From contig OZ220744.1 in NCBI GenBank assembly GCA_965116925.1, positions 5,600,001 through 5,664,000 on the forward strand: a stretch of DNA of 64,000 nt, in the 5' to 3' direction. Below the pieces are notes generated by a model. That model was not told where the DNA came from. It worked only from the letters and a program-made list of their open reading frames with translations, and did no database searches. Made by a program: the position numbers and the translations under genes. This DNA comes from Candidatus Poribacteria bacterium. GTDB taxonomy: Bacteria; Poribacteria; WGA-4E; PCPOR2b. Positions 34,524 through 58,482 of this stretch are shown here, piece by piece. Each line of letters opens with the position of its first letter. Positions within the stretch are counted from its first letter, which is position 1.

Positions 34524-34554
34524 AAAAAAGGCGAATGGATAGAACCATTCGCCT
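34524..34554 (-). terminator. Array terminator AGGCGAATGG-loop-CCATTCGCCT + U-tract
   Basis: Hairpin plus T-run on the minus strand after ECF-1. Confidence 0.8.
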
Positions 34555-34582
34555 AATGAATTTTTGGAGATAGATTTGCAGG

Positions 34583-36049
34583 CTAGTGGGGCCACTCTCG
34601 CACCTCCGACATCGCACTGTCATAATCGACCGCTTTGTCATAAACTCGCCAAGCACTATTCTCTTTACGCATCTTAACAAGCTGATATCCGGACGAGATA
34701 AAAATTGATGTCGAATGATCCGATGAAATATTCGGCATCTCCGGTGCCGGTGTTCTCAACCGGAAGTGAAATTCATCGCCTACATATTCGCTGCTCACAA
34801 CCTCCGCCTGACTTATCGTTTCACGGATTGACTCACCCAGCACTGGTTTAAACTGATGTATAATTTCGACGACGTCATCCGGTGCATCATCTGACACATC
34901 TACGGAAATCTCAGAGCCTACGGAAATCTCAGAGCCATCACCATAATAACCATGGTTGCTACGCATGTACTCCTCTGTCCCTAACAAGCTCATTGCCCCA
35001 AAATCAGAATCCCTAAACGCCTCCACGTAAGCATACATCACGTCTTCAGCAGACTGATTTGTGCTTTCTGATGAAACAGATGTGTCAGTAGTGAAATCCC
35101 ACTCTGTGTCTAGATCAAATTCCGTTTCTGTCGCGAATTGTGCCAGATCCGTTTCGTCGAGTTCAGCGTACAAATCGTCAATCAGTTCTTTCTCTTCAGC
35201 AGATGCTGCTGAAGCAATTTGTGGCGGATTATCCCGAACTTCCATATCTTGAGTAGAATCAGCAGTTTGGGCAGCCAAGCCTTCCGGGCTACTTTGTGGG
35301 CGCGCCGTGCCATCTTCCCATGGCGACAGATACACGCGTTCCGCAACTGTGGGTGCATTCAACTGACGTATCCCAATGTAACCGATAAAAATAAGCACAA
35401 TCAGTGCTGCCGCACCAACCGTTATTTTAGATGCCGTTCCAACTTTCATGACAGTTAGACCTCCCGTATAAAGTTTTTTTAGTGTCATTGTGGGAGAAAC
35501 GAAGATGCCTGTCAGAAGGTATTGCAACCGTTTGGAGAGTTGTCGCTTCGCACGCGACAGCCGAAACGCAATTGCGTTGTATGACAGTCCATGCGTACTC
35601 GTCAGTTCATCGTAACTCGCACCCTCCAGATAGAAAGCACGCGCAATGTCCCTGTCTTTCTGCGGAAGCGTCTCCATGGTCCGGCGAATCAATTCCCTCT
35701 GCTCTAACCGTGCCAATCGCTCATCAGGTGAATCCTCCGTTTGCAACAGATGTTCACTCACGTCATCAAGGGATACGGTCTCACCCTGTTGTTTACGGAG
35801 CCAGTTTCGGGCGCGATTTCGCGTAATCTCTGCCAACCAACTTTTGAATTTGGTCGCATCCTCAAGCTGGCTTAACCCTTGATACGCGTTGAGAAAGGCA
35901 TCCTGCACGACCTCTTCAGCATCATGGGAATTGTCCACAACCCCGACAACAATTGCATAAACGAAGGCGTGGTACGACCGCATCAGGTCAGCAAATGCTC
36001 CTTCATCCCCACTTTGGGCACGATAGATAAGCGTATTCTCTTTAGTCAT
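34583..36049 (-). CDS. Membrane-anchored ECF sigma-70 factor with extracytoplasmic C-terminal domain (ECF-1)
   Basis: DAEEVVQD.FL, FKSWL (region 2), HTH region 4, TM helix, acidic linker, NTF2-like C-domain (KMRKENxxWRxYD). Confidence 0.9.
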   Translation of the reverse strand: MTKENTLIYRAQSGDEGAFADLMRSYHAFVYAIVVGVVDNSHDAEEVVQDAFLNAYQGLSQLEDATKFKSWLAEITRNRARNWLRKQQGETVSLDDVSEHLLQTEDSPDERLARLEQRELIRRTMETLPQKDRDIARAFYLEGASYDELTSTHGLSYNAIAFRLSRAKRQLSKRLQYLLTGIFVSPTMTLKKLYTGGLTVMKVGTASKITVGAAALIVLIFIGYIGIRQLNAPTVAERVYLSPWEDGTARPQSSPEGLAAQTADSTQDMEVRDNPPQIASAASAEEKELIDDLYAELDETDLAQFATETEFDLDTEWDFTTDTSVSSESTNQSAEDVMYAYVEAFRDSDFGAMSLLGTEEYMRSNHGYYGDGSEISVGSEISVDVSDDAPDDVVEIIHQFKPVLGESIRETISQAEVVSSEYVGDEFHFRLRTPAPEMPNISSDHSTSIFISSGYQLVKMRKENSAWRVYDKAVDYDSAMSEVREWPH

Positions 36050-36074
36050 AGCACTTCATTCCTCCCTTACACCC

Positions 36075-36111
36075 TACCAAGACACAGTTCCGAGATTTTT
36101 TTTAGCACTTT
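36075..36111 (-). promoter_or_regulatory. Conserved ECF-type promoter motif, copy before ECF-1
   Basis: AAAGTGCTAAAAAAAATCTCGGAACTGTGTCTTGGTA; one of 11 copies. Confidence 0.65.
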
Positions 36112-36167
36112 TTTGTGCTGAGAGATATTTTATCCATTTTTTCGAGAGCAAGCAATAAAAAAGGCGA

Positions 36168-36299
36168 GGTTCATGTAAAAAGAAAGTGCAAAACACGAAG
36201 CGAAATCGTAGGGGCAGGGTCTCCCCGCCCGCCGTAAGGGTTGGGGGACCCAACCCCTACGAATATTCGGTTTCTTTGCACTAAATCTTAACATGAGCG
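36168..36299. mobile_element. MITE family A copy inserted in a terminator, TSD AAAGGCGA
   Basis: Near identical to 23471-23602; exact 8-bp duplication. Confidence 0.88.
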
Positions 36300-36355
36300 A
36301 AAGGCGAATGGACAAAACCATTCGCCTCGTGAAGTCTTGGGGATAGGTTTGCGAT

Positions 36356-37747
36356 CTAGTGAGAGTGGGGCATCTCCGGCAGCTCTGACTGCATCCTGTC
36401 CAAATCGAACACAGTGTCATAAATTAGCCACACCCCATTCTCCTCTCGCATCTTAATAAGCTCGTATGAGGCACCGATAAAAACCGTTATGCCCCGATCC
36501 GAGACAATCGGCGGCCTATCTAATGCCGGTGCTGCTAATTGGAAGTGGAATTCATCGCCGACATATTTGCTGCTCTCAATCTCTGCTTGACTGTTCCTTT
36601 CATACATCAATTCAGCTATCTTGTCGACAATTTCAAGCGGTAGTTCACCAGCATTATCACGGTAGCTATGCCTGTACTCCTCTGTCATTAACGATTCCAG
36701 CGCGTCACTGTCGAAATTTCTATACGCCTCCAAATAAGCATACATTACATCTTCAGCCGATTGACCTATGCTTTCTGATGAGGCAGATATGTCGGTAGTA
36801 AAGTCCGGCTCTGCGTCTAGATCAAAGTCCGTTTCTATTGGGAATTGTGCCATATCTGTTTCGTCGGATTGATCGGAGAAATCGTCAATTGGCTCTATTC
36901 CTGCTGCGGATTCTGCTGTGGTAATTTGTGGCTGAACGCCTCCGCTTTCCGCATCTTGAGTCGTACCAGCTGGGAGTTCTTCAGGGATGTTTCGTGGGCG
37001 TTCAGTGCCATCCTCCCACGGCGACAAATACACACGCTCCTCGACTGTAGGCGCATTCATCCGGCGAACTCCAACGAAACCGATGAAAATGACTGCAATT
37101 AACGCTGCTGCACCAATTGTGACTTTAGGCACCGTTTCAATTTTCATGACGGTTAGCCCCCCCGAATAAATTTTCTTTAGCGTCAGTCCGGGAGAAACGA
37201 AGATACCAGTCAGAAGGTATTGCAACCGTTTGGAGAGTTTCTGCTTGATGCGAAAAAGCCGCAACCCTATTGCGTTGTATGATAGCCCATGCGTGTTAGT
37301 CAGTTCGTCGTAGCTTGCACCCTCCAGATAGAAGGCACGGGCAATCTCCCTGTCCTTTTGTGGAAGCGTCTCCATGGTCCGGCGAATCAACTCTCTCTGC
37401 TCCTGTCGTGTCAGTTGCTCATCAGGAGAATCCTCCGTTTGAAGTATCCCTTCACTCACTTCATTAAGGGGTACGGTCTCGCCCCGCTGTTTTCGGAGCC
37501 ATTGCCGGGCACAGTTTCGCGCAATCTCTGCTAACCAACTCTTGAATTTGGTTGTATCCTCAAGCTGTGTCAACCCTCGATAGGCACTGAGGAAGGTATC
37601 TTGCACCACCTCTTCGGCATCATGGGGATTATTCACACCTCCGATAACAATTGTATAGACAAAGGGATAGTATTCCCGCATTAGGTCGGCAAATGCCCCT
37701 TCATCCCCAGTTTGGGCGCGATAGATGAGCTTATCCTCCTTAGCCAT
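36356..37747 (-). CDS. Membrane-anchored ECF sigma factor (ECF-2)
   Basis: Paralog of ECF-1; ATG 37747 (MAKEDKLI). Confidence 0.9.
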   Translation of the reverse strand: MAKEDKLIYRAQTGDEGAFADLMREYYPFVYTIVIGGVNNPHDAEEVVQDTFLSAYRGLTQLEDTTKFKSWLAEIARNCARQWLRKQRGETVPLNEVSEGILQTEDSPDEQLTRQEQRELIRRTMETLPQKDREIARAFYLEGASYDELTNTHGLSYNAIGLRLFRIKQKLSKRLQYLLTGIFVSPGLTLKKIYSGGLTVMKIETVPKVTIGAAALIAVIFIGFVGVRRMNAPTVEERVYLSPWEDGTERPRNIPEELPAGTTQDAESGGVQPQITTAESAAGIEPIDDFSDQSDETDMAQFPIETDFDLDAEPDFTTDISASSESIGQSAEDVMYAYLEAYRNFDSDALESLMTEEYRHSYRDNAGELPLEIVDKIAELMYERNSQAEIESSKYVGDEFHFQLAAPALDRPPIVSDRGITVFIGASYELIKMREENGVWLIYDTVFDLDRMQSELPEMPHSH

Positions 37748-37876: not shown

Positions 37877-38951
37877 TCACTGCCTTTCCAATTTCATACG
37901 TCCCCAAAGGGTGGCCTGATTACTTGACACCTCCACCGACAGAGAAGGATCACGAATCACCCACGTCGGGTCAGTATCTGAACCCGGATCCTCAGTAAGT
38001 TGCGCCCGATTACCCCCGTTGGCATCCATCACATAAATGTCTGGCTGCTGACCAACCTGAAATGCGTGGAACGCAATCCACCTCCCACTGGGAGACCACG
38101 CAGGCGCACGGTCTTCCCATGGGTGGCGGGTCAGGTTCACGACGTCCGCTCCATCCGGGTTCATTACATAGATATCGTCCTGACCCCCGATTGGACTGAA
38201 ACGCTATCTGTGTCCCATCGGGAGACCATGTAGGCGCAGCGTCTAGGGCAGGGTGGTTGGTTAAATTGACCTGCTTTCTACCATTTGAACCCATCACATA
38301 GATCTCCCCATTCCCATCCCGATTGGAAAAGAACACAATTTTTGAACCGTCAGGAGACCAAGAACCAACCTCATCAATTCCCGGCGACCATGTTAAATTT
38401 TTCAACACGATCCCTTCGATATCGATAACACAAACGTCAGTCATACCATCTGGTGACCCATCAGTGCTGGTGAGAGCTAACCGCTTCCCATCGGGAGACC
38501 ATTTTGGCGATAGGTACGTTTGACCACCAAACTGTTTAGTCACCTCTTTGATTTGACGGATTTGATGACGAGGCCCCGAAAATTCAGGAAGAATAACAGG
38601 AGTCTCCAAATATATAAAAGTGACAAATGGGTCCTGTGGATCATGCACATGGTAAGCAATATACTTTCCATCCGGTGACCAAGCAATTGGACCGTATCTA
38701 CGATTACTAAACCGCCAAGGTATTTCAGGTATTTCAAATAGTGGTATGTCAACCGGTATTTCAAATCTGAATCCATCGGCATCAATCAAATAAACTGCCG
38801 TCTGAAAAAGGGGGTCTCGATCTCGATCGGATAAAAACGTGATGGTGCCGGTCCACTTGTCGGCGGCAGCCTGTTTAATAAACAGGCTCCATGAAAGTAG
38901 GAGTATTATGGCACCAAAAATCTTTTGATGCACTGCGAGTTGCTTCAACAT
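37877..38951 (-). pseudogene. PD40/TolB-like beta-propeller gene, frameshifted in a G-run near 38186
   Basis: Paralog of 57217-58296; WSPDG repeats; C-terminal ATLWGRMK in a second frame. Confidence 0.8.
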
Positions 38952-39046: not shown

Positions 39047-39904
39047 TTATCGGGACCGGTAGGTGCGGTTTCCAACCGCACCGGTATGGAAGTTACCCTT
39101 TACCTCTCCCCAAGTGGTCGTGAGTTGCCTTCGGGGCTGCACTGAAAGAGCCTCGTATTGAACCTCAAAATCATCGAAGTGGACACGGTTCCCCCTTCCT
39201 GACGACAGGTAAATTCCCCCTGCCGTGTAGGTATCGTCAAGAAAATCTAGCATTTTTGTGTCATCAATAAAGCATTGAAACCGATTCCCTTTGGCAATAA
39301 CCTTCAACCGATACCACTTGTGCAGCTTGAAATCAAATTCCCGAAATGCGAGTAGGTTGTCCCCTAAAAAGATTGTCGGGAATCCGTCTTTTGTCACAGA
39401 AACCTTCATAAGTTGAATGGTCGCTGCAAGACCTCCTCTTATATCGTGATTATTATTACCTAGGACGAACCTGTAAGATCGCTTGTCCAGAAGTTGAATC
39501 GCCTTGTTCTTCTCGTCTCTCTCCATCCCCTCGGTCCTCTCAAAATATTCAGTGAGCAGCTCAACGTGGTGCGGATCCAGTGGATCCATATGAGCGCGCA
39601 GCCCAATGGCTGCACCATCGCTACTATTCCTAGCTAGCTTGCTGATTTTTAGGGACACCGACACCTCGTAGTCGCTTGCGATTATACCATCAGGCACGAT
39701 GATAACCTCCGACTCAAGCTGCACTTCATCCACCACTTTAGGAGAACCGAGAACCAATTCACCATTTTCAATACCACCATCTTCAGCACCTTGCAAAAAC
39801 GTCCATCCCTGTAAGTCCCCATCGTTAAAATTATCGCGAAATATCTCTGCCCATGCTGATGACACAAACAAAGTAAGTGTCAACATAACTATTGTATGCT
39901 TCAT
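39047..39904 (-). CDS. Secreted LamG/DUF1080-like beta-sandwich protein with TTTWGEVK motif
   Basis: Signal peptide, FRDNFNDG, WYRLKVIAKG, VHFDDFEV, LSVQP..LTTTWG. Confidence 0.75.
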   Translation of the reverse strand: MKHTIVMLTLTLFVSSAWAEIFRDNFNDGDLQGWTFLQGAEDGGIENGELVLGSPKVVDEVQLESEVIIVPDGIIASDYEVSVSLKISKLARNSSDGAAIGLRAHMDPLDPHHVELLTEYFERTEGMERDEKNKAIQLLDKRSYRFVLGNNNHDIRGGLAATIQLMKVSVTKDGFPTIFLGDNLLAFREFDFKLHKWYRLKVIAKGNRFQCFIDDTKMLDFLDDTYTAGGIYLSSGRGNRVHFDDFEVQYEALSVQPRRQLTTTWGEVKGNFHTGAVGNRTYRSR

Positions 39905-40346: not shown

Positions 40347-40383
40347 TACCAAGATGCAGTCCCGAGATTTTTTTTACCACTTT
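40347..40383 (-). promoter_or_regulatory. ECF-type promoter motif copy
   Basis: GTGGTAAAAAAAATCTCGGGACTGCATCTTGGTA. Confidence 0.55.
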
Positions 40384-40483
40384 TTTGCTTTCAAATAAAA
40401 AAAATACGGCTATCCGCCAAGTCCTCCTCAAATTTACCTTACCCTCAGAGATATTTTACCTGTTTTTTCGCAGAGCAACCAAT

Positions 40484-40515
40484 AAAAAAAGGCGAATGGA
40501 TAAATCCATTCGCCT
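40484..40515 (-). terminator. Array terminator after ECF-3
   Basis: Same hairpin plus U-tract. Confidence 0.8.
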
Positions 40516-40551
40516 CATGAATTCTTGGAAGTAGCTTTGTGAGCTAGGGAC

Positions 40552-41925
40552 CTACCTACTCACACGATCGAACAGAACGACATAAATTCGCCACACCCCA
40601 TTCTCTTTTCGCATTTTAGCCTGCTGATATAGGCAGGTAAACATTGGCATTCTTTGGTCTGAAATACCCGGTAGCTCTAGTGCCGGCATTCTCAATCGGA
40701 AGTGAAATTCATCGCCCACATATTCGCTGCTTACAAGCGATGACTGCCCTCGTAGTTCCCGGAATGCCTCAACTAGCATTTGATGCTTAGTTTCGACGAC
40801 TTCGTCTGACATATTTATGGAATCCCCACCAACAAGATCATCATGGACGCTACGCCTATACTGCTCTGTCATTAACGATAGCATCACCTTAGAATCAGCA
40901 TCTCGCCACGCTTCTACGAAAGCATACATCACATCTTCAGCCGACTGACCTGTGTTTTCTGATGACGCGGATATGTTGGTAGTGAATTGCTCTACCTTTA
41001 GATCAAATTCCGTTTCTGTTGCGAACTGTGTCATATCTGTTTCGTCGGATTGATCGAAGAAATCATCAATAGACTCTGTTCCTGCTGTGGACGCAGCAGC
41101 AATCTGTGGCAGGTGGTTCCGGTTTTCTGTATCTTGAGTGGTGTCAGCTAGGAATCCTTCGGGGTTATTTCGTGGGCGTGTCGTTCCATCCTCCCACGGC
41201 GACAGATACACACGCTCCTCGACTGTGGGCGCATTCATCTGGCGTAGCCCAACGAAACCGATGAAAATGACTACAATCAACGCTGCGACCCCCACCGTTA
41301 TTTTGGGGACAGTTCCAACCTTCATAACGTTTAGACCTCCCGAATAAAGCTTTTTGAACGTCAGTCCGGGAGAAACGAAGATGCCTGTCAGAAGATAGCG
41401 CAACCGTTTGGAGAGTTGCCGCTTAATGCGAAAAAGGCGAAACGCAATTGCGTTATATGACAGGCCATGCGCCCTAGTCAGTTCGTCGTAGCTGGCACCC
41501 TCTAGATAGAATGCGCGGGCAATGTCCCTATCCTTTTGTGGAAGCGTCTCCATTGTCCGGCGAATCAGTTCCGTCTGTTCCTGTTGTACCAATTGGTCAT
41601 CAGGTAAGTCCTCTGTTTGAAGTATCCCCTCACTCACTTCATCAAGGGATACGGTCTCGTCCCTCTGTTTGCGGAGCCACTGTCGCACACAGTTCCGCGT
41701 AATCTCTGCCAACCAATTTTTGAATTTGGTTACATCTTCAAGTTGTCTTAACCCTCGATAAGCACTGAGGAAGGTATCTTGTACCACCTCTTCGACATCA
41801 TGGGGATTGTCTACAATTCTTATAACAATCGTATAGACAAAGGGGTAGTATTCCCGCATCAGGTCGGTGAAAGCCCCCTCATCTCCAGCTTGGGCACGAT
41901 AAATGAGCGTATTGTCATTAGCCAC
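40552..41925 (-). CDS. Membrane-anchored ECF sigma factor (ECF-3), GTG start
   Basis: Paralog of ECF-1. Confidence 0.9.
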   Translation of the reverse strand: MANDNTLIYRAQAGDEGAFTDLMREYYPFVYTIVIRIVDNPHDVEEVVQDTFLSAYRGLRQLEDVTKFKNWLAEITRNCVRQWLRKQRDETVSLDEVSEGILQTEDLPDDQLVQQEQTELIRRTMETLPQKDRDIARAFYLEGASYDELTRAHGLSYNAIAFRLFRIKRQLSKRLRYLLTGIFVSPGLTFKKLYSGGLNVMKVGTVPKITVGVAALIVVIFIGFVGLRQMNAPTVEERVYLSPWEDGTTRPRNNPEGFLADTTQDTENRNHLPQIAAASTAGTESIDDFFDQSDETDMTQFATETEFDLKVEQFTTNISASSENTGQSAEDVMYAFVEAWRDADSKVMLSLMTEQYRRSVHDDLVGGDSINMSDEVVETKHQMLVEAFRELRGQSSLVSSEYVGDEFHFRLRMPALELPGISDQRMPMFTCLYQQAKMRKENGVWRIYVVLFDRVSR

Positions 41926-41949: not shown

Positions 41950-41986
41950 TATCAAGATATAGTCCTGAGACTTTCCTAGCACTTTA
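41950..41986 (-). promoter_or_regulatory. ECF-type promoter motif copy (degenerate)
   Basis: GTGCTAGGAAAGTCTCAGGACTATATCTTGATA. Confidence 0.5.
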
Positions 41987-42022: not shown

Positions 42023-42051
42023 ATTATATCAACCCGTCCAATCCGCGTCAA
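42023..42051 (-). promoter_or_regulatory. sigma70 promoter TTGACG-17-TATAAT upstream of ECF-3
   Basis: Near-perfect consensus, conserved in three units. Confidence 0.75.
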
Positions 42052-42089: not shown

Positions 42090-43013
42090 TTATTGGTTGA
42101 CCTGTTTGAGCTGTCCCCACATTGTAAACTTTTTGCCGGAGGGAGAAACCGAAAAAGGAGAGTTAAACCATGCAGGATTAGCGTCACCATGCGGATTATT
42201 GGTGAGGTTTTGAGGATTCCCGCCATCGGCATCCATCGCGTAGATTTCAGTATTTTCAATGTCCGCCTCCCTATTAGACCAGAAGACAATGCGCTTGCCG
42301 TCAGGGGACCATGAGGGGTCCTCATCAAAAACGCGATTTTCAGTGAGTCTTTGTTCATTCTGCCCATCAGCATCCATCACGTAGATTTCATAAGTGATTC
42401 CATCCTCGCCTATAAAGTGCCCAGGCCTGCGAGCCCTGAAGACAATCCGTTCACCATCGGGGGACCATGAGGGATCTTTGTCCTCAGTGAGATTTTTAGT
42501 GAGTCTTTGTTGATTCTTCCCATCGGCGTCCATCACATAGATCTCAACATTATGAGCAGCCTCACCCTTACCCATATCCCTATCAGACGAAAAGACAATG
42601 CGTTTGCCGTCGGGGGACCACGAGGGGGTTCTATCATCAGAAGGATTGTTAGTGAGGTTTTGAGGATTGCCTCCATCGTCGTCCATCACGTAGATTTCAG
42701 CAGTGAGCCAACCGTTAGCGTCAACGTGCCCATCCCTATCAGACACGAAGGCAATGCGTTTACCGTCGGGAGACCATGACGGTGAATAGTCACTACTGGG
42801 ATTATTGGTGAGTCTTTGTTGATTCTCCCCATCGTCGTCCATCACGTAGATTTCAGGAGCGGGTATCTCGGGTATATCCTTTCGAAAGTGCCCATCCCTC
42901 TGAGACGCGAAGGCAATCTGTGCCTGTACCTCAACACATACCATCAGCGATGTCAGCACCAAGACTACTACGCCAGCTAAAATCAAATGGGTGAGATTGT
43001 ATCTCCGTTGCAT
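42090..43013 (-). CDS. Secreted PD40/TolB-like beta-propeller (subtype A, one blade short)
   Basis: Signal peptide, 4 WSPD repeats + final PAW, FTMWGQLK. Confidence 0.88.
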   Translation of the reverse strand: MQRRYNLTHLILAGVVVLVLTSLMVCVEVQAQIAFASQRDGHFRKDIPEIPAPEIYVMDDDGENQQRLTNNPSSDYSPSWSPDGKRIAFVSDRDGHVDANGWLTAEIYVMDDDGGNPQNLTNNPSDDRTPSWSPDGKRIVFSSDRDMGKGEAAHNVEIYVMDADGKNQQRLTKNLTEDKDPSWSPDGERIVFRARRPGHFIGEDGITYEIYVMDADGQNEQRLTENRVFDEDPSWSPDGKRIVFWSNREADIENTEIYAMDADGGNPQNLTNNPHGDANPAWFNSPFSVSPSGKKFTMWGQLKQVNQ

Positions 43014-43080: not shown

Positions 43081-44046
43081 TTATCGATCAATCCGCTTAA
43101 GCTGTCCCCACATTGTAAACTTTTTGCCAGCGGGAGCAACTGAAAGAACAGGGTTAAGCCACGCAGGATCTTCGTCATCGTCGGGATGATTGGTGAGGTT
43201 TAGCACATTCCCCCCATCGGCATCCATCACAAAGATGTCCCGATTCAAATCCCTCGTCCTATTCGATACGAAGGCAATCCGTTTGCTGTCAGGAGACCAG
43301 GAGGGATTCCAGTCGTTATCAGGATGGTGCGTGAGGTTTCGCTGATTATGCCCATCCGCGTCCATCACATAGATTTCCCGGTTTCCCAATTTTCTCAAGG
43401 AAGTAAAAACAATGCGCTTACCGTCGGGGGACCATGAGGGGTCCTCGTCAGTACGGTCATTCCTAGTGAGATTTTGCTGCTTGACTCCATCGGCACCCAT
43501 CACATAGATGTCTTGGTTCCCTCCCCTAATGGAAACAAAGACAATGTGTTTGCTGTCAGGAGACCAAGAGGGATTATCGTCACGCCAGGCATTTTTGGTG
43601 AGTCTTTGTTGGTTACCACCATCGGCATCCATCACGTAGATTTCACTGGCCCCATCCCTACCAGACGTGAAGACAATGCGTTTGCTGTCAGGAGACCAAG
43701 AGGGATCCCAGTCATCAAAGTCATTGTTAGAGAGATTTCGCTGATTGCCCCCATCGGCGTCCATCATGTAGATTTGCCGGTGCCCACCTATATCATTCTT
43801 ATCAGAGCTAAAGGCAATCCGTTTGCCGTCCGGAGACCATGAGGGATACTTATCATCACCGGGATTGTTAGAGAGGTTTTGCTGATTACCTCCATCGTTG
43901 TCCATCACGTAGATTTCCCAGTGCCAATTCCTATCAGATTCAAAGGCAATCCGTGCCTGCACATCAACGCATACTATCAGTGGTGTCAGACCCAAGGCTA
44001 TAACGCTAGCTAAAATCAAATGTGCAAGAGTGTATCTCCGTTGCAT
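43081..44046 (-). CDS. Secreted PD40/TolB-like beta-propeller (subtype B)
   Basis: 5 WSPD repeats, WHWEIY, NNDFDDW, FTMWGQLK. Confidence 0.9.
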   Translation of the reverse strand: MQRRYTLAHLILASVIALGLTPLIVCVDVQARIAFESDRNWHWEIYVMDNDGGNQQNLSNNPGDDKYPSWSPDGKRIAFSSDKNDIGGHRQIYMMDADGGNQRNLSNNDFDDWDPSWSPDSKRIVFTSGRDGASEIYVMDADGGNQQRLTKNAWRDDNPSWSPDSKHIVFVSIRGGNQDIYVMGADGVKQQNLTRNDRTDEDPSWSPDGKRIVFTSLRKLGNREIYVMDADGHNQRNLTHHPDNDWNPSWSPDSKRIAFVSNRTRDLNRDIFVMDADGGNVLNLTNHPDDDEDPAWLNPVLSVAPAGKKFTMWGQLKRIDR

Positions 44047-44067: not shown

Positions 44068-44104
44068 TATTAAGATACAACTCCGAGATTTTTTTTAGCA
44101 CTTT
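44068..44104 (-). promoter_or_regulatory. ECF-type promoter motif copy
   Basis: GTGCTAAAAAAAATCTCGGAGTTGTATCTTAATA. Confidence 0.65.
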
Positions 44105-44203
44105 TTTGCTTTCAATCAAAAAAATACGACTATCTACTAAGTTCTCTTCAAATTTATCCTACCCTCAGAGATACTTTACCTATTTTTTAGCGGAGCAACT
44201 AAT

Positions 44204-44234
44204 AAAAAAAGGCGAATGGAAGAACCATTCGCCT
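44204..44234 (-). terminator. Array terminator after ECF-4
   Basis: Same hairpin plus U-tract. Confidence 0.8.
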
Positions 44235-44269
44235 CGTGAAGTTCTGAAAATAGGTTTGCGAGTAGCGAC

Positions 44270-45689: not shown

Positions 45690-45725
45690 TATCAAGATAC
45701 AGTCCTGAAGTTTTTCTGACACTTT
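45690..45725 (-). promoter_or_regulatory. ECF-type promoter motif copy (variant -35 GTGTCAG)
   Basis: GTGTCAGAAAAACTTCAGGACTGTATCTTGATA. Confidence 0.5.
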
Positions 45726-45762
45726 ATGTGAACATCTCATCGGATTGAGAGGTTCGTCCGGA

Positions 45763-45961: not shown

Positions 45962-45968
45962 AAGGCAG

Positions 45969-49289: not shown

Positions 49290-49326
49290 TGTTAAGATGC
49301 AATTCTGAGATTTTTTTTAGCACTTT
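49290..49326 (-). promoter_or_regulatory. ECF-type promoter motif copy
   Basis: GTGCTAAAAAAAATCTCAGAATTGCATCTTAACA. Confidence 0.6.
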
Positions 49327-49427
49327 TTTTGTTTTTAAGGGAAAAAATATGGCTTCCTGTCGAAACACTCTCTAAATCCACGCTATCCTTAGCGGTATTT
49401 TGCTTTTTCCTTCGTGGAGCAAGCAAT

Positions 49428-49458
49428 AAAAAAGGCGAATGGTATGAACCATTCGCCT
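49428..49458 (-). terminator. Array terminator after ECF-5
   Basis: Same hairpin plus U-tract. Confidence 0.8.
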
Positions 49459-49513: not shown

Positions 49514-51256
49514 TCACCGCGCCTTCTCCTCTTTTCGCATCTTGGTAACAGTATCTGGTGAAGGTGTGGCAGACATTTCTATTCCATGCTCTCCACCATC
49601 CGGCATCTTTGGGGCAGGCATTCTCAATCGGGAGTGAAATTCATCGCCCACATATTCGCCGTTTATAGCCGATGCCTGACGCTGCATCTCACGAAACGAC
49701 TCATTCAGCATTGGTTCAAACTGATGGCTAGTGTTGACGATCTCATCCGGTATGCGATCTGATGACTCATGTTGTACTTCCCTTATCTCTATCGGAATCC
49801 CAGAATCATCATGGCTACTACGTCCCATATCGCTTCTTATATTTGCCGCCGGCACCTCCGCCATCGTATTTTCGATTGAGGTCATAGCGTCATAAACTCG
49901 CCACATCCCATTCTCTTGTCGCATCTTAATAAGGCTATATACGGTGTAGGTACACTTTGGCATTCCCTGATCTGTAATACTTGGTGGCTGTTTCAATCGG
50001 AAGTGAAATTCATCACCAACATATTCGCTGCTCACAAGCAATGCCTGCTTTCGTCCTTCACGGACTCTTTCCTCAATCGCCATTCGTTCAAACTGAGACA
50101 TAGTTTCGACAACCTCAGCCGGTGATTCATCTGACGTATCTATGGAATCCTCATCGTCAGGATCTTCATGGCCCTCGCGCCGATACTGCTCTGTCATTAA
50201 TGAGCCCATTGCCTTAAAATCAAGGTTCCGCCACGCCTCGAAGTAAGCGTACATCACATCTTCAGCGGACTGCCCTGTGCTTTCTGATGACGCAGATGTG
50301 CCGGTTGTGAACCCCCGCACTATGTCTAGATTAAATTCCCCGTCTGTTGTGAATTGTGACAGATCCGTTTCCTCAGGTTCACCGACGAAATCGTCAACTG
50401 GCTCTGTGCTTGCTGTGGACGCCATCGCAGCAATTTGCGGCAGATTGTTCCAGCTTGCTGTATCTTGAGCGGTATCAGTTGGGAATCTTTCGGGATTGTT
50501 TCGCAGGCGTGCCGTTCCATCCTCCCACGGCGACAAATACACACGCTCCTCGACTATAGGCGCGTTCATCTGGCGTAGCCCAATGAAACCGATCAAAACC
50601 AGCGCAATCAACCCTATCCCTCCAACCACCATTTTGGGGGTAGTTCCAACTTTTATGGCGGTTAGACCTCTCGTATAAAGTTTCTTCAGCGTCAGCCCGG
50701 GAGTGACGAACACACCGGTCAGAAGGTATCGCAATCGTTTGGAGAGTTGTTGCTTCGCACGTGACAGCCGAAACGAAATCGCCTTGTCTGACAACCCGTG
50801 TGTGCTCGTCAGTTCATTGTAGCTTGCACCCTCAAAGTAGAAAGCACGGGCGATGTCCCTATCCTTTTGCGGAAGTGCCTCCATTGCCCGGCGGATTAGT
50901 TCTCTCTGTTCCTGTCGGGTCAATTGTTCATCAGGCGGGTCTTGTGTCTGTAGTACCCCTTCATCCACGTCATCAAGGGGTACAGTGTTGATCCTTCGTT
51001 TTCGGACCCATTGTCGTGCACAATTTCGCGCAATCTCCGCCAGCCAGCTTTTGAACTTTACCGCATCCTCAAGCTGCCTCAGTCCTCGATAGGCGTTGAG
51101 GAAGGTGTCTTGTATCACCTCTTCGACATCATGGGAATTGTCCACGATTCTTATAACAATCGTATAGACAAAGGGGTAATATTCCCGCATCAGGTCGGTG
51201 AAAGCCCCCTCATCTCCAGCTTGAACGCGATAAATGAGCGTATTGTCATTAGCCAT
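49514..51256 (-). CDS. Membrane-anchored ECF sigma factor (ECF-5) with partial second C-terminal domain
   Basis: Paralog; ATG 51256; second EYVGDEFH..KMRKE block at the C-terminus. Confidence 0.88.
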   Translation of the reverse strand: MANDNTLIYRVQAGDEGAFTDLMREYYPFVYTIVIRIVDNSHDVEEVIQDTFLNAYRGLRQLEDAVKFKSWLAEIARNCARQWVRKRRINTVPLDDVDEGVLQTQDPPDEQLTRQEQRELIRRAMEALPQKDRDIARAFYFEGASYNELTSTHGLSDKAISFRLSRAKQQLSKRLRYLLTGVFVTPGLTLKKLYTRGLTAIKVGTTPKMVVGGIGLIALVLIGFIGLRQMNAPIVEERVYLSPWEDGTARLRNNPERFPTDTAQDTASWNNLPQIAAMASTASTEPVDDFVGEPEETDLSQFTTDGEFNLDIVRGFTTGTSASSESTGQSAEDVMYAYFEAWRNLDFKAMGSLMTEQYRREGHEDPDDEDSIDTSDESPAEVVETMSQFERMAIEERVREGRKQALLVSSEYVGDEFHFRLKQPPSITDQGMPKCTYTVYSLIKMRQENGMWRVYDAMTSIENTMAEVPAANIRSDMGRSSHDDSGIPIEIREVQHESSDRIPDEIVNTSHQFEPMLNESFREMQRQASAINGEYVGDEFHSRLRMPAPKMPDGGEHGIEMSATPSPDTVTKMRKEEKAR

Positions 51257-51280: not shown

Positions 51281-51317
51281 TATCAAGATACAGTCCCGAG
51301 ATCTGTCTGGCACTTTA
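51281..51317 (-). promoter_or_regulatory. ECF-type promoter motif copy (variant -35 GTGCCAG)
   Basis: GTGCCAGACAGATCTCGGGACTGTATCTTGATA. Confidence 0.5.
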
Positions 51318-51353: not shown

Positions 51354-51382
51354 ATTATATCCACTTGTCAAATCCGCGTCAA
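51354..51382 (-). promoter_or_regulatory. sigma70 promoter TTGACG-17-TATAAT upstream of ECF-5
   Basis: Consensus match. Confidence 0.75.
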
Positions 51383-51457: not shown

Positions 51458-52492
51458 CTATCGGTCAATCTGTTTGAGCCAACCCCACATTGTGAATTGT
51501 TTGCCGGTGGGAGAAACCGAAAAAGGAGAGTTCAACCAGACAGGATCGCCGTCACGATGCAGATTATTGGTGAGTTTTTGAGGATTAGCCCCATTATTGT
51601 CCATCACGTAGATTTCACTGTTTCCATTCCCATCCCTCTCCGACATGAAGGCAATGCGTTCACCGTCCGGAGACCATGAGGGCGAACTGTCATCACCGCG
51701 ATTATTGGTCAGTTTTTGTTGATTCCCACCATCGACGTCCATCACGTAGATTTCAAAGTTTTCAAAGTCACCCTTCCTATCAGATGCGTAGACAATCCGT
51801 TCACCGTCAGGAGACCAGGAGGGAAACCAGTCAGTTTGACGATTTTCAGTAAGTCTCTGTTGATTACCTCCATCGACATCCATTACATAGATTTCAGTAG
51901 TGATTCCAGCTTTGCCTCTAAAGTGCCCAGGCCTCTCAGATACAAAGACGATCCGTTTGCCATCGGGGGACCAAGAGGGATACCTGTCGTCACTGGGATT
52001 GTTAGTCAGGTTTTGAAGATTCCCACCATCGGCGTCCATCACGTAGATTTCATAAGTAGGAGCAAAATCTATAATGTGCCCATCCCTCATAGACATGAAG
52101 ACGATCTGTGTGCCGTCAGGAGACCAGGAGGGGCCCCTGTCATCAGCGGGATTTTCAGTGAGTCTTTGCGGATTCTTCCCATCGGCGTCCATCACGTAGA
52201 TTTCATAAGTAAACCAACCGGGTACAAAGTGAGGGTGGCCATCTCTATCCGACACGAAGACAATCCGTTTACCGTCCGGAGACCAGGAGGGATCCCAGTC
52301 CTTAGCGGGATTATTGGTGAGTCTTCGCTGATTCTTCCCATCAACATCCATCACATAAATTTCAGGGTTGCCATCCCTCTGAGACACGAAGGCAATCTGC
52401 GCTTGTGAATTGACGACTACCATCAGCAGCGTTAGAACCATGATTACAACACCAGTTAAAATCAAATGGGCGAGATTATATCTTCGGTGCAT
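51458..52492 (-). CDS. Secreted PD40/TolB-like beta-propeller (subtype A)
   Basis: 5 WSPD repeats, DGH/PGH loops, FTMWGWLK; ATG 52492 behind GAGGAGG. Confidence 0.9.
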   Translation of the reverse strand: MHRRYNLAHLILTGVVIMVLTLLMVVVNSQAQIAFVSQRDGNPEIYVMDVDGKNQRRLTNNPAKDWDPSWSPDGKRIVFVSDRDGHPHFVPGWFTYEIYVMDADGKNPQRLTENPADDRGPSWSPDGTQIVFMSMRDGHIIDFAPTYEIYVMDADGGNLQNLTNNPSDDRYPSWSPDGKRIVFVSERPGHFRGKAGITTEIYVMDVDGGNQQRLTENRQTDWFPSWSPDGERIVYASDRKGDFENFEIYVMDVDGGNQQKLTNNRGDDSSPSWSPDGERIAFMSERDGNGNSEIYVMDNNGANPQKLTNNLHRDGDPVWLNSPFSVSPTGKQFTMWGWLKQIDR

Positions 52493-52700: not shown

Positions 52701-53699
52701 TTATCGGTCAACCCGCTTGAGCCAGCCCCACCTCGTGAGTATCTTACCTGTCGGAGCAACTGAAAGAACGGGGTTAGACCATGCAGGAACAGTGTCATCA
52801 TCGGGATGATTGGTCAGGTTTCGAGGATTATTCCCATCGGTGTTTATCACGAAGATTTCATGGTTCCCATCATTCTCCCTATCAGACACGAAGACAATCT
52901 GTTTACCGTCCGGAGACCAGGAGGGGTTCCAATCCCTAAAGGGATTTTGAGTCACTCTTTGCTGATTGCCTCCATCGGCGTCCATCACATAGATATCCCG
53001 GTTTCCCCCTGGCCCATTCCTAAAGGAATCAAAGGCAATGCGCTTACCGTCTGGAGACCATGACGGATTTTGATCATGCTTGGCATTATTGGTGAGGTTC
53101 TGCTTATTACCCCCATCGGCATCCATCACGAAGATCTCAAAGTTCCCACCCTCAACGGAATTAAAGGCAATCCGTTGACCGTCGGGAGACCATGACGGAT
53201 CGCTCTCATCAGAAAAAGGATCGTTGGAGAGGTTTTGCACATTACCCCCATCGGCATCCATCACATAGATTTGCCAAACTCCACCCGCAACGTTCCAGTG
53301 CTCACTAGAAGTAAAGACAATCCGTTGACCGTCGGGAGACCATGACGGTTCCCATTCAGAAAAGTCACTGTTAGTGAGTTTTTGCTTATTCCCCCCATCG
53401 GCGTCCATCACGAAGATTTGCCGGTTCTCATCCCTAGCTCCTTCTCCAGCCCTACTGGTAACAAAGGCAATCCGTTGACCGTCCGGTGACCATGTGGGTT
53501 CCGATTCATCCAAGGGATTGTTAGTGAGTCTTCGCAGATTCCCCCCATCGGTGTCTATCACATAGATTTCCAAGTTCCAATCCCTATCAGACACGAAGGC
53601 AATCTGTGCCTGTGCGTCAACGCATACCATCAGCAGCGTTAGACCCAAGACTACCATGCTAGTTAAAATCAAATATCCGGGATTATATCTCCGTCGCAT
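52701..53699 (-). CDS. Secreted PD40/TolB-like beta-propeller (subtype B-like)
   Basis: 5 WSPD repeats, LTRWGWLK; ATG 53699. Confidence 0.9.
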   Translation of the reverse strand: MRRRYNPGYLILTSMVVLGLTLLMVCVDAQAQIAFVSDRDWNLEIYVIDTDGGNLRRLTNNPLDESEPTWSPDGQRIAFVTSRAGEGARDENRQIFVMDADGGNKQKLTNSDFSEWEPSWSPDGQRIVFTSSEHWNVAGGVWQIYVMDADGGNVQNLSNDPFSDESDPSWSPDGQRIAFNSVEGGNFEIFVMDADGGNKQNLTNNAKHDQNPSWSPDGKRIAFDSFRNGPGGNRDIYVMDADGGNQQRVTQNPFRDWNPSWSPDGKQIVFVSDRENDGNHEIFVINTDGNNPRNLTNHPDDDTVPAWSNPVLSVAPTGKILTRWGWLKRVDR

Positions 53700-54377: not shown

Positions 54378-55379
54378 TCATCGGTTGACCTGTTTGAGCC
54401 ACCCCCACATTGTAAGCTTTTTGCCCACGGGAGAGACCGAAAAAGGTGAATTCAACCATGCAGGACTAACGTCATCATGGGGATTATTGGTGAGTCTTTG
54501 CGGATTCTTCCCATCGGCGTCCATCACGTAGATTTCAGGGTTCCCATCCCTCCAAGACACGAAGGCAATGCGTTTACTGTCAGGAGACCATGTGGGCTGC
54601 AGATCAGAACGGCGATTTTCAGTGAGTTTTTGTTGATTCCCTCCATCGGCATCCATCACGTAGATTTCAGGGTTTTCAAAATCCCCCTTCCTATCAGCCT
54701 CAAAGGCAATCCGTTCTCCGTCGGGAGACCATGAGGGATAGAAGTCATTCTGGCGGTTTTCAGTCAGTCTCTGTTCATTCTGCCCATCAGCAGCCATCAC
54801 GTAGATTTCATAAGTGATTAGAAACTTGCTTTTAAAGTGCCCAGGCCTCTGGGACACAAAGACAATGCGTTGACTATCGGGAGCCCATGAAGGATACCTG
54901 TCATCATTGGGATCGTTAGTGAGGTTTTGAGGATTCTTCCCATCAGCGTCCATCACGTAGATTTCAAAAGTGGGTGCAGCGTCTACAATGTGCCCATCCC
55001 GCAAAGTCATGAAGGCAATCCGTTTACCGTCGGGAGCCCATACGGGATACCAGTCCTCATTGGGATTATTGGTGAGTCTACGTGGATTCTCTCCATCGGC
55101 ATCCATCACGTAGATTTCACGGTTCCCATCTCGTTCGGAAACAAAGACAATGCGCTTGCCATCGGGGGACCATGAGGGCCACCAGTCATTATCGCGATTA
55201 TCGGTGAGTCTTTGTTGATTCTTCCCATCAATGTCCATCACGTAGATTTCATCGTTCCCATCCCTATCAGACACAAAGGCAATCTGTGCCTGTGTATCAA
55301 CACATACCACCAGCGGCGTTACACCTAGGACTGCTACGATAGCTAAAATCAAATGTGTGGGACTGTATTTCTGTCGCAT
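54378..55379 (-). CDS. Secreted PD40/TolB-like beta-propeller (subtype A)
   Basis: 5 W(S/A)PD repeats, LTMWGWLK. Confidence 0.9.
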
Positions 55380-55400: not shown

Positions 55401-55436
55401 TATTAAGATACAATTCTGAGATTTTTTCTAGCACTT
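55401..55436 (-). promoter_or_regulatory. ECF-type promoter motif copy
   Basis: GTGCTAGAAAAAATCTCAGAATTGTATCTTAATA. Confidence 0.65.
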
Positions 55437-55537
55437 TTTTCGTTTTTAAGGAAAAAATATGACTTCCTGTTGGAACGCTCCCTAAATCCACACTATCCTA
55501 AGAGGTATTTTGCCTCTTTCTTCGCGGAGTAAGCAAT

Positions 55538-55569
55538 AAAAAAGGCGAATGGAATGAACCATTCGCCTT
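55538..55569 (-). terminator. Array terminator after ECF-6
   Basis: Same hairpin plus U-tract. Confidence 0.8.
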
Positions 55570-55596: not shown

Positions 55597-57033
55597 CTAG
55601 CGGTGAAACATCTCTGACAACTCTGCCTGCGCCCTGTCTGAATCGAACACACTGTCATAAATTCGCCACGCGCCCTCCTCTTTTCGCATCTTAATAAGCC
55701 TCTCTTCGGACGGAAAAACCACTGTTTCCCCCTGATCTGAAATATCCGGTATCTCCGATGCCGGCGTTCTGAATCGGAAGTGAAATTCATCGCCGACATA
55801 CTTGTTACTCACAACCTCAGCTTGACTTCGCCTTTTTTGGCTTAACTGCTCTAACAACGGTTCAAGCTGCCTACTCTTTTCTTCTACATCTTCCACATCT
55901 GGCTGTCCGCCTACTGTCGCCACACCGATTACTGTTGTCTCATCAAGACCACTATGTCCGATATCCTCTGCGAATAATGGGCGCATTGCCTTATAGTCAA
56001 AGTTTCGCCATGCTTCTACATAAGCGTCCATCACATCTTCAGCAGACTGATTTGTGCTTTCTGATGACACAGATGTGTCAGCAGTGAAATCTTGCTCTGT
56101 ATCTAGCTCAAATTCCGCTTCCGTTGCGAATTGCGCCATATCCGTTTCGTCGAGTTCAGCGAAGAAATCGTCAATTGGCTCCATTCCTGCTGCAGATTCT
56201 GCCGGAGCAGTTTGTGGCTGAGTGTCTCCGCTTTCCGCATCTTGAGTGGTGTCAGCTAGGAGTTCTTCAGTGCTGTTTCGTGGACGTGCAGTGCCATCCT
56301 CCCACGGCGACAAATACACCCGCTCCTCAACTGTGGGCGCATTCATCTGACGGACTCCGATATAACCGATGAAAATCAGTCCAATCAGTGCTATCGCGCT
56401 TACTGTTATTTTAGGTGCCATTCCAACCTTCATGGCAGCTAGACCTCCCGAATAGATTTTTTTGAGTGTTAATCCGGGAGGAACAAAGATGCCAGTCAGC
56501 AGATATTGCAACCGTTTGGAGAGTTGTCGCCTCGCACGCGATAGCCGGAACGAAATCGCCTTATCTGACAGTCCGTGCGTGCTAGTCAACTCGTTGTAAC
56601 TTGCACCTTCCAGATAGAATGCGCGGACAATATCCCTGTCTTTCTGCGGAAGTGTCTCCATTATACGGCGAATCAGCTCGCTCTGTTCCTGTCGCGTCAA
56701 TCGCTCATCAGGTGAATCTTCCATTTGAAGCAGGTGTTCACTCACTTCGTCGATAGACACGGTATCGCCTCTCTGTTTACGGAGCCAGTTTCGCGCCCGA
56801 TTTCGCGCTATCTCTGCCAACCAGCTTTTGAATTTCGCGTTATCCTCAAGCTGTTTCAAACCTCGATAGGCACTGAGAAAGGTATCTTGCACAACCTCTT
56901 CGGCGTCATGGGAATTTTTCACGATTCCGATTACGATTGCATAAACATAGGCGTGGTATGACCGCATCAGGGCAGCAAACGCTTGTTCATCGCCAGCTTG
57001 GGCGTGATGGATGAGTGTATTCTCCTTAGCCAT
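55597..57033 (-). CDS. Membrane-anchored ECF sigma factor (ECF-6)
   Basis: Paralog of ECF-1. Confidence 0.9.
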   Translation of the reverse strand: MAKENTLIHHAQAGDEQAFAALMRSYHAYVYAIVIGIVKNSHDAEEVVQDTFLSAYRGLKQLEDNAKFKSWLAEIARNRARNWLRKQRGDTVSIDEVSEHLLQMEDSPDERLTRQEQSELIRRIMETLPQKDRDIVRAFYLEGASYNELTSTHGLSDKAISFRLSRARRQLSKRLQYLLTGIFVPPGLTLKKIYSGGLAAMKVGMAPKITVSAIALIGLIFIGYIGVRQMNAPTVEERVYLSPWEDGTARPRNSTEELLADTTQDAESGDTQPQTAPAESAAGMEPIDDFFAELDETDMAQFATEAEFELDTEQDFTADTSVSSESTNQSAEDVMDAYVEAWRNFDYKAMRPLFAEDIGHSGLDETTVIGVATVGGQPDVEDVEEKSRQLEPLLEQLSQKRRSQAEVVSNKYVGDEFHFRFRTPASEIPDISDQGETVVFPSEERLIKMRKEEGAWRIYDSVFDSDRAQAELSEMFHR

Positions 57034-57058
57034 GGCTCTTCGTTCCTCCCTTACACCC

Positions 57059-57095
57059 TACCAAGACACAGTTTCGAGATTTTTTCTAGCACTTT
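57059..57095 (-). promoter_or_regulatory. ECF-type promoter motif copy
   Basis: GTGCTAGAAAAAATCTCGAAACTGTGTCTTGGTA. Confidence 0.65.
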
Positions 57096-57141
57096 TTTAT
57101 TTTAAGAAACATTTTACCCGTTTCTTCACAAAGCAAGCAAT

Positions 57142-57172
57142 AAAAAAGGCGAATGGAGGGGACCATTCGCCT
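57142..57172 (-). terminator. Array terminator after propeller 57217-58296
   Basis: Same hairpin plus U-tract. Confidence 0.8.
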
Positions 57173-57216
57173 AATTCTAAAGAGGTCTTCTATTCCATAA
57201 TTGGTGTTTCAAATTG

Positions 57217-58296
57217 TCACTGCCTCCCCAATTTTATGCGTCCCCAAAGGGTAGTTTGATTATCTGATACCTCCACCGATAAAGAGCGGTCAGGAATGAC
57301 CCACGTCGGGTTAGTGTCCGCCCGCGGATCCCCAGTGAGCTGTTTCTGATTATCCCCGTTGGCATCCATGACATAAATATCTGAACGCTTCCCGACCCGA
57401 AATGCGTGGTAAGCTATCCACCTACCATCGGGAGACCATGCAGGCGCCTGGTCTTCCCATGGGTGGCGGGTTAGGTTGACGACATTCGCTCCATCAGGGT
57501 TCATCGCATAGATATCGTCCTGCTCCCCTTCCCGATTGGAATGAAACGCTATCTTTGTCCCATCGGGAGACCATGTGGGTGCAGCGTCGCGGGCGGGGTG
57601 GTTGGTCAAATTGATTTGGTTGTTCCCATTTGCGTCCATCACATAGATTTCCCCGTTTCCATCCCGATTGGAAAAGAATACGATTTTTGAGCCATCAGGA
57701 GACCAAGAACCGACCTCATCTACTCCTGGCGACTGTGTTAAGTTCTTCAACTGATTGCCCTCAATATCCATGACACAAACATCCGTCATACCATCTGGTG
57801 ACCCGTCAGTGCTGGTGAGAGCTAACCACTTCCCATCCGGGGACCATTTTGGCGATAGGTACGTTTGACCGCCAAACTGTTCGGTTATGCTTTTGTGCTG
57901 TTTCGGAGGATCAATAATTGCTACTTGGACTGCCCGATTTTCAAATTTCGGACCTAAATGATTCTTCAGCACTTCAGGAAGAAGAACAGGAGTCTCCAAA
58001 TATATATGAGCACGATGTTGGTCCTGCAGGTGGAAGGCAATATATTTGCCATCAAGGGACCAGGCGATTGGACCATATTTGAAGGTACTAGCCCTCCAAC
58101 TTTCTTCATTTAATCCATCCGCATCAATCACATAAACTACTATCTCATCCTCAAAAGGGTGGCGCTTCCGATCGGATACAAACACAATGGTGCCGGTCCG
58201 CTCGTCGGCAAAAGCCTGTTCGGTAAACAGAATCCATGTAAATAAAGGTATCATGACACCAAGAATCCTCCGGGACACTGAGAGTTGCTTCAACAT
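57217..58296 (-). CDS. Secreted PD40/TolB-like beta-propeller (subtype C)
   Basis: ATG 58296 behind GGAGG; WSPDG repeats; TTLWGRIK. Confidence 0.88.
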   Translation of the reverse strand: MLKQLSVSRRILGVMIPLFTWILFTEQAFADERTGTIVFVSDRKRHPFEDEIVVYVIDADGLNEESWRASTFKYGPIAWSLDGKYIAFHLQDQHRAHIYLETPVLLPEVLKNHLGPKFENRAVQVAIIDPPKQHKSITEQFGGQTYLSPKWSPDGKWLALTSTDGSPDGMTDVCVMDIEGNQLKNLTQSPGVDEVGSWSPDGSKIVFFSNRDGNGEIYVMDANGNNQINLTNHPARDAAPTWSPDGTKIAFHSNREGEQDDIYAMNPDGANVVNLTRHPWEDQAPAWSPDGRWIAYHAFRVGKRSDIYVMDANGDNQKQLTGDPRADTNPTWVIPDRSLSVEVSDNQTTLWGRIKLGRQ

Positions 58297-58445
58297 GTGT
58301 AATCCTCCTTGCATTCGTTTGGTAATCATGTGTGACCGAATTCCGTCGGGACAGTAACGAACGGCGTCCCCCATATCCTCAATAAGCCCCTCGCTGCACA
58401 TGAGCTCATCGACACCTTAGCCCAGATTTGTTCTTCACCAATATC

Positions 58446-58482
58446 TACCAAGACACACCTTTGAGATTTTTTCTAGCACTTT
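58446..58482 (-). promoter_or_regulatory. ECF-type promoter motif copy at the head of the array
   Basis: GTGCTAGAAAAAATCTCAAAGGTGTGTCTTGGTA. Confidence 0.6.

Follow-up and report, generated by a model that had tools for sequence, protein, structure and literature searches.

Several described regulators approach the locus reported here. IutY of Pseudomonas putida, an ECF243 sigma/anti-sigma hybrid, combines a sigma factor of the extracytoplasmic function (ECF) type, one helix and an outer domain in one chain, as the present proteins do, and is released by Prc and RseP (PMC5411451, PMC8999054). ECF57 of the Planctomycetes is likewise built with a membrane-bound C-terminal extension, has no separate anti-sigma factor and displays lineage expansion (PMC7826278 supplement). 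ECF48/52/53 of the Actinobacteria share a membrane-spanning extension of up to 400 residues, with presumed proteolytic release (PMC7826278 supplement). In ECF41/56/205/294/295, a similar NTF2/SnoaL-like fold is located C-terminal to the ECF part (PMC8999054, PMC7826278). Finally, the SigI/RsgI systems of Clostridium thermocellum are alike in their paralogous sigmas, related A-tract promoters and paralog specificity, as well as in their variable outer sensors (that of RsgI9 is NTF2-like) and exported targets (PMC10575876, PMC12203970).

The locus lies at positions 34524 to 58482 of a 64,000-nucleotide stretch (the window) of contig OZ220744.1 from a Candidatus Poribacteria bacterium. Its 17 genes, every one on the minus strand in the list of open reading frames (ORFs), encode six ECF sigma factors (S1-S6), ten PD40 propellers (P1-P10) and one further exported protein (L1). 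The reading considered probable, though well short of certain, is a tandem bank of ECF sigma factors, each tethered by a helix with an NTF2-like domain outside, in which proteolytic release would activate the promoter heading the sigma's own operon. Its foundations, namely the architecture, operon layout, promoter motif, residue-base covariation and match of promoters to the downstream sigma, are read from sequence.

Promoter motif, recognition code and predicted wiring

It can be observed that a two-part motif, consisting of an A run, GTGCTA, an A tract and, 17-19 bases further, a TGTCTT-like hexamer, precedes all six sigma genes and all five secreted blocks. With a motif model trained on other genomes only and strong sites defined by a score of at least 22, 17 sites were obtained in the source genome (G000) vs 1 in shuffled DNA; 11 are located in the array, 5 before other family sigmas and 1 before a sigma gene remnant. 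The motif is retained in distant genera with part of the spacer variable. A conserved two-part promoter before the own gene, here computed, is the pattern of the ECF class. Additionally, S3-S5 possess near-consensus sigma70 promoters (11/12 each). Decayed remnants of the family were also noted at G000:C1:2619750-2620040 (a promoter with a broken sigma start) and G000:C1:359592-360065 (an outer-domain fragment adjoining an insertion sequence).

Covariation between sigma residues and promoter bases was analyzed with sequence weighting for the 160 of 175 family sigmas that have a parseable promoter, the other 15 being left out. Out of 5425 residue-base pairs, the three that ranked highest link residue 162 to -35 position 4, residue 62 to -10 position 4, and residue 82 to -10 position 1. 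F162 occurs with C (111/115), while V162 (13/13) and L162 (13/17) occur with G; L62 is paired with C in 112/119 cases and Y62 with T in 38/38. CG accompanies D82 (17/18) and S82 (16/16), TG accompanies N82 (79/82), and Q82 is found with A in second place (40/42). Moreover, the base after the -35 hexamer is G for K158 in 78/80 and A for N158 in 56/70. Residues 158-162 lie within the sigma4 recognition helix, and residue 82 is the DxxR position. In an alignment to E. coli sigmaE, residues 62, 78, and 82 correspond to F64, N80, and N84. The three strongest covariations sit at ECF DNA-reading positions (recognition helix, -10 pocket, DxxR position). In sigmaE, F64 is part of the pocket that receives flipped -10 bases, and N80 contributes to melting (PMC6648896); the DxxR Asp recognises -12G in Tt-RpoE1 (PMC3397946). 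In a tree of 114 representatives with the code columns excluded, phylogenetically independent pairs changed in the same direction in 1.8/2, 4/5 (1 opposite), 5.3/6, and 3.9/4 cases, and 12 non-cognate pairings displayed mostly no change.

The wiring was examined with 50 block-head promoters from 15 genomes. Their bases fit the downstream sigma at 144/146 positions and the upstream sigma at 71/106. At positions where the neighbours predict different bases, the downstream sigma was favoured in 13/13, 8/8, and 14/14 cases (35/35 in total). Within the window, the P10 promoter fits S6, the P9 promoter S5, the P6 promoter S4, and the L1 promoter S2; that of P3 is uninformative. Since block-head promoters match the downstream sigma, the unit is read as promoter, secreted genes, sigma, terminator, which replaces the phasing of the initial annotation (promoter, sigma, terminator, promoter, secreted genes). 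Each sigma likely switches on its own small gene set and is predicted to drive the block upstream of itself in the same transcription unit. The regulatory coupling of sigmas to adjacent secreted genes proposed earlier is supported by the promoter code, with the driven block predicted to precede the sigma rather than follow its terminator.

Along the direction of transcription the genes run P10, S6, P9, P8, P7, S5, P6, P5, P4, S4, P3, P2, S3, L1, P1, S2, S1. Features are as follows (window positions; TM, transmembrane helix).

58450..58483 (-) ECF-type promoter motif heading P10, code matches S6 (motif model and code)
57217..58296 (-) P10, PD40 propeller, signal-peptide-like start, C-terminal WGxxK tail (domain search)
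57147..57172 (-) terminator-like hairpin after P10
57063..57096 (-) ECF-type promoter motif of S6
55597..57033 (-) S6, ECF sigma, TM, acidic linker, NTF2-like domain; code residues K158, F162, L62, N82
56431..56448 (-) GGAGG and ATG (Met201) inside S6, where a sigma-less form may start
55542..55569 (-) terminator-like hairpin after S6
55405..55438 (-) ECF-type promoter motif ahead of P9-P8-P7-S5, in agreement with S5 and not with S6
54378..55379 (-) P9, PD40 propeller
52701..53699 (-) P8, PD40 propeller
51458..52492 (-) P7, PD40 propeller
51354..51382 (-) near-consensus sigma70 promoter before S5, 11/12
51285..51317 (-) degenerate proximal ECF-type motif of S5
49514..51256 (-) S5, ECF sigma, TM, NTF2-like domain and second partial copy; K158, F162, Q82
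49433..49458 (-) terminator-like hairpin after S5
49294..49327 (-) ECF-type promoter motif ahead of P6-P5-P4-S4, in agreement with S4 and not with S5
48040..49029 (-) P6, PD40 propeller
47018..47983 (-) P5, PD40 propeller
45969..46988 (-) P4, PD40 propeller
45763..45792 (-) near-consensus sigma70 promoter before S4, 11/12
45694..45726 (-) degenerate proximal ECF-type motif of S4
44270..45664 (-) S4, ECF sigma, TM, NTF2-like domain; N158, F162, Q82
44209..44235 (-) terminator-like hairpin after S4
44072..44105 (-) ECF-type promoter motif ahead of P3-P2-S3, with equal fit to S3 and S4
43081..44046 (-) P3, PD40 propeller
42090..43013 (-) P2, PD40 propeller with one repeat missing
42023..42051 (-) near-consensus sigma70 promoter before S3, 11/12
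41954..41986 (-) degenerate proximal ECF-type motif of S3
40552..41925 (-) S3, ECF sigma, TM, NTF2-like domain; N158, F162, Q82
40489..40516 (-) terminator-like hairpin after S3
40351..40384 (-) ECF-type promoter motif ahead of L1-P1-S2, in agreement with S2 and not with S3
39047..39904 (-) L1, exported PF06439 (3-keto-disaccharide hydrolase-like) protein, WGxxK tail
37877..38951 (-) P1, PD40 propeller with a frameshift near 38185; its paralog is P10
37776..37809 (-) proximal ECF-type motif of S2
36356..37747 (-) S2, ECF sigma, TM, NTF2-like domain; N158, L162, Q82
36302..36327 (-) hairpin after S2, palindromic repeat between hairpin and T run
36079..36112 (-) ECF-type promoter motif of S1
34583..36049 (-) S1, ECF sigma, TM, NTF2-like domain; N158, F162, N82
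34529..34554 (-) terminator-like hairpin at the array end, after S1

Sigma and secreted genes alternate over most of the array, as first described, except that S2 and S1 adjoin with no secreted gene between them. Terminator-like hairpins are located 3' of all six sigmas; the same hairpin occurs 13 times in the genome, 7 times within the array and 6 times next to other family genes, and five further genes with the same sigma domain are present elsewhere in the genome. An assembly artefact is ruled out: contigs from two runs of two studies (X1 and X2, either of which could be the source sample) bridge several unit junctions, for example P3-S4, P6-S5, and S6-P10, and the array recurs at this locus in 14 other genomes. 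No single contig covers the whole array. In two metatranscriptome runs of one study, short contigs match sigma genes with 88-99% identity; being contigs, from relatives and without a silent control, they are not evidence of transcription. A palindromic REP-like repeat (36206-36262, 52563-52619, and 54166-54222; core in ~147 copies genome-wide) was also found, one copy of which interrupts the S2 terminator by separating hairpin from T run. A 155-aa gene of no known family at 34021-34488 is kept at the array end in most relatives.

A rather improbable explanation of these data is a duplication and gene-conversion hot spot of little regulatory meaning, in which all sigmas read all promoters and code agreement reflects inherited linkage. 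Copy number does vary in the genus (2-6 sigmas and 1-14 secreted genes per genome), array genes contain frameshifts and truncations, two 98%-complete genomes of the genus have zero matches to the outer-domain profile, the sigma module has undergone chance fusions to PurC and WD40, and Planctomycetes ECFs have been described with duplication and chance capture (PMC7671368). However, the covariation is strongest at residues that read DNA, arises again on separate branches and is mostly missing in non-cognate pairs, while the code match survives 1-4 kb of intervening genes. Furthermore, comparison with the best hits gives a dN/dS below 1 for each region: 0.12-0.18 for the sigma domains, which on this measure are under purifying selection, 0.19-0.36 for the helix region, 0.39-0.80 for the linker, and 0.26-0.62 for the outer domain.

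Predicted tethered sigma proteins and their proposed release

The identification of S1-S6 as one-protein, membrane-tethered ECFs is supported by their predicted domains. All six ORFs contain Sigma70_r2 and r4_2 domains, a predicted TM helix, an acidic linker and an outer domain. As in the ECF class, only sigma2 and sigma4 with a short linker are present, and TIGR02937 is over cut-off in 6/6; among the models listed, no subfamily cut-off was passed by S1-S6. The single hydrophobic helix (residues 209-228) follows sigma4 after only ~30 residues and is preceded by basic residues, while the linker behind it comprises ~80 residues with a net charge of -10 to -20. No separate anti-sigma gene was found among the ORFs listed for the window, in agreement with the initial annotation. 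The motif ERVYLSPWEDG, previously emphasised as conserved, is present in 6/6 array sigmas but is not a family motif, being confined to the own genus (92/121 membrane-linked sigmas vs 0/46 in three other genera). Identity between paralogs falls along the chain, with 79% for the sigma domain, 76% for the helix region, 58% for the linker, and 50% for the outer domain.

Structure modelling of the sensor domain, proposed at the outset, was carried out with 71 sequences and yielded an NTF2-like model (pLDDT 80.5). The best Foldseek match was NTF2/SnoaL-like (E 6.6e-4), as was the top structural comparison (Z 9.2, rmsd 2.5, 93 aligned; next Z 8.2 and 8.1), and the NTF2 domain of the anti-sigma RsgI9 was among the matches (Z 7.1). 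The outer domain is accordingly modelled as NTF2-like, with scores that are middling and a match list dominated by one fold. Pfam gave weak NTF2-clan hints below cut-off, while sequence search of the PDB produced nothing convincing and the ESM Atlas no usable match. A homodimer prediction scored 0.01, evidence for neither side. In the full-length model, the sigma and outer domains are confident and pLDDT is <50 over residues 181-326. The second NTF2-like copy in S5 is partial and truncated.

In the proposed mechanism, the sigma would be held inactive at the membrane by one helix in a presumed N-in/C-out topology, with the NTF2-like domain reading an envelope or small-molecule signal. By analogy with IutY, regulated proteolysis by Prc- and RseP-type proteases would free the sigma, and M50 and S41 protease genes are encoded in the genome. 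The freed sigma would then activate the promoter at the head of its own operon, from which exported proteins and then the sigma itself would be expressed, so that positive feedback may result. The sigma70 promoters could give a basal supply of S3-S5, and the few residue-base pairs would partly insulate the paralogs.

With the same wiring, the tethered sigma might instead act without proteolysis, through a change of shape or oligomer or titration by a sigma-less form, which appears unlikely. The presence of a conserved internal ribosome site indicates that the sigma genes may also yield a sigma-less membrane form: of 117 distinct sequences keeping the Gly-Gly pattern, 101 have GGAGG and 114 have an ATG ~10 bases on, and GGA makes up 101/109 Gly codons at the site, whereas at four control Gly columns the most frequent codon reaches 37-59%. 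This signal and its start codon are kept across four genera, stand-alone sigma-less TM-NTF2 genes are present in one related genus, and the SnoaL-fused ECF41 is switched by conformation (PMC8999054). Against it, the gap between sigma4 and helix is short, the signal is intact in S1, S3, and S6 but degraded in S2, S4, and S5, and the sole tested sigma-TM hybrid, IutY, requires proteases (PMC5411451). Only 2/5 helix-less sigma-WD40 relatives retain the Gly-Gly/GGAGG pattern. Other membrane-tethered ECF families with large outer domains (G000:C1:5665252-5670530, just past the window, and 5433740-5444395) also have an in-frame GGAGG-ATG after the sigma domain.

Exported cargo and distribution

Ten PD40 ORFs with signal-peptide-like starts and C-terminal WGxxK tails account for the ten secreted propellers recognised earlier, one of which, P1, is frameshifted; the additional secreted protein, formerly termed LamG-like, is L1, which matches PF06439 and bears the same tail. 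P1 lacks five bases relative to P10 near 38185. Since lower-depth contigs in 3/4 runs examined have a five-base insertion at this site and relatives have intact genes, the frameshift is likely a strain-level break. TolB identity was not reached in the 3/10 propellers scanned (179-264 bits; TIGR02800 cut-off 343 bits), and no match to the Por secretion C-terminal domain TIGR04183 was found at E 0.001 in 4/4 tailed proteins scanned. In Poribacteria, WD40 proteins that may bear a C-terminal sorting domain were noted by Kamke et al. (PMC3909097). The WGxxK tail ends 120 ORFs genome-wide vs 0/9560 random internal windows and is a possible lineage-specific sorting signal. The propeller dN/dS is 0.24-0.37 (five propellers). 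P6 (48040-49029) displays 99% identity to its counterpart in one related genome (G005), its neighbours 72-85%, which hints at recent exchange.

Eight named relatives (57-74% identity) all belong to Ca. Poribacteria. In the comparison across related genomes suggested earlier, the best-matching region was taken from 15/19 genomes of the genus; 14/15 were arrays beside the same flanking genes and the fifteenth was another locus. The outer-domain profile matches in 59/151 genomes of the phylum and has 102 representatives among 1.84 billion proteins, while complete sigma-TM-NTF2 genes occur in four genera of two families. No PD40 genes were found in the arrays examined from three other genera; these contain other exported or outer-membrane proteins (Omp85, DUF4252, WD40 or LamG genes), and the motif there stands almost solely directly before sigmas. 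In the source genome, 75 such propellers are encoded, 65 of them outside the array in 22 clusters, and array propellers frequently have their best hit outside the array. Because PD40 genes are missing from the arrays examined in other genera and propellers lie mostly outside the array, they were probably captured late: the pairing looks like a capture specific to one genus, in which propeller genes would have been inserted between a promoter and its sigma, the sigma array being older than its cargo. The motif was rejected as controller of all propellers, with 0/22 clusters outside the array carrying it.

Further arrangements of the family were observed. An Omp85/POTRA-type gene is located beside or inside its arrays in four genera (G000:C1:1231205-1233406; L047, L049, L050). 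At G000:C1:6346817-6348283, a second PurC copy continues in frame from the family's promoter and sigma domain, with loss of the membrane helix; full-length matches occur in 8/20 genomes of the genus, next to a separate intact purC. Helix-less fusions of the sigma module to a WD40 propeller are present in another family (L051:14413-16044, L052:12814-14457), and a different ECF continues, beyond a helix, into an M16 peptidase-like part and the family's NTF2-like domain (L048:8619-11360).

These distributions bear on the interpretation in the initial annotation, which is partly supported, just as its observations were partly confirmed. It proposed that an outside ligand is sensed by each sigma; in the version weighed here, the ligand comes from a host or competitor and the sigma switches on the binding proteins that follow it, as part of a dedicated symbiosis or defence locus. 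The faster divergence of outer than sigma domains (50% vs 79% identity), a related sequence in a run labelled sponge metagenome, and the abundance of WD40-type repeat proteins in Poribacteria (PMC3909097) are in line with such a role, which is nevertheless very unlikely: promoters match the downstream sigma and never the upstream one where the two differ, most propellers are not under motif control, and no whole-domain dN/dS exceeds 1. In other genera these sigmas are accompanied by Omp85-type and further envelope genes in place of propellers, and for this reason an envelope or small-molecule cue is favoured over a dedicated host-defence role. A bolder extension, a self-diversifying switchboard of one-protein membrane sensors with a four-position code insulating paralogs, exchangeable propeller cassettes and a sigma-less decoy from the internal start, is entertained as a doubtful possibility.

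Several points weigh against the tethered-bank reading. The 35 discriminating positions stem from related, partly orthologous units and are not 35 independent events; the promoter-sigma match could persist by descent, and the independent pairs are few, with none of the four tests significant alone. Insulation is incomplete, because S3 and S4 carry the same code. The proximal motifs of S2-S4 obey the code less well, which suggests that the block-head motif is the functional site rather than the proximal one. The modelled fold, with its middling scores, reveals no ligand, and the full-length model predicts no folded anti-sigma domain in the stretch from sigma4 to the outer domain. RseP is present in 14/14 and Prc in 10/14 control genomes, so that such proteases are common and lend weak support.

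Comparison with known systems

The general design is already known from IutY and ECF57, while the array lacks tested defining features of ECF57, ECF243, the ECF41-like groups and ECF48/52/53. IutY differs in its FecR-type outer domain, TonB receptor and single gene, whereas the array is tandem, NTF2-like and has no receptor within; no FecR Pfam match was found in the array sigmas. ECF57 has about two helices, a conserved Cys pair and no conserved promoter (PMC7826278), whereas the present family has one helix and a conserved autoregulatory-type motif. Both Cys (sigma2 and sigma4) are present in only 8/175 family sigmas, and instead of about two helices with a WD40 or homeodomain-like extension, one helix and an NTF2-like domain were found. 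In ECF41/56/205/294/295, the domain directly follows the sigma; the array proteins share the SnoaL/NTF2-like extension but not the helix-free junction, a predicted helix and the 80-residue acidic linker placing the domain outside. SigI falls outside the sigma4-type ECFs and has its anti-sigma as a protein of its own. A zinc-finger anti-sigma domain is part of ECF48/52/53, and none was seen in the array sigmas by domain search. In the literature searched, which excludes subscription journals, no paper on Poribacteria ECFs or this family, nor on internal starts in fused ECFs, was found.

Membrane-tethered ECFs are known almost solely from surveys, and the promoter of ECF57 could not be predicted. 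In the present case, from an uncultured phylum, the sequence allows target promoters, target operons and a natural residue-base code to be read off, which makes the system testable in a laboratory host without knowing the signal. The array thus adds to the described systems a natural series of near-identical sigma/promoter pairs with few differing positions, useful for understanding how duplicated regulators become insulated.

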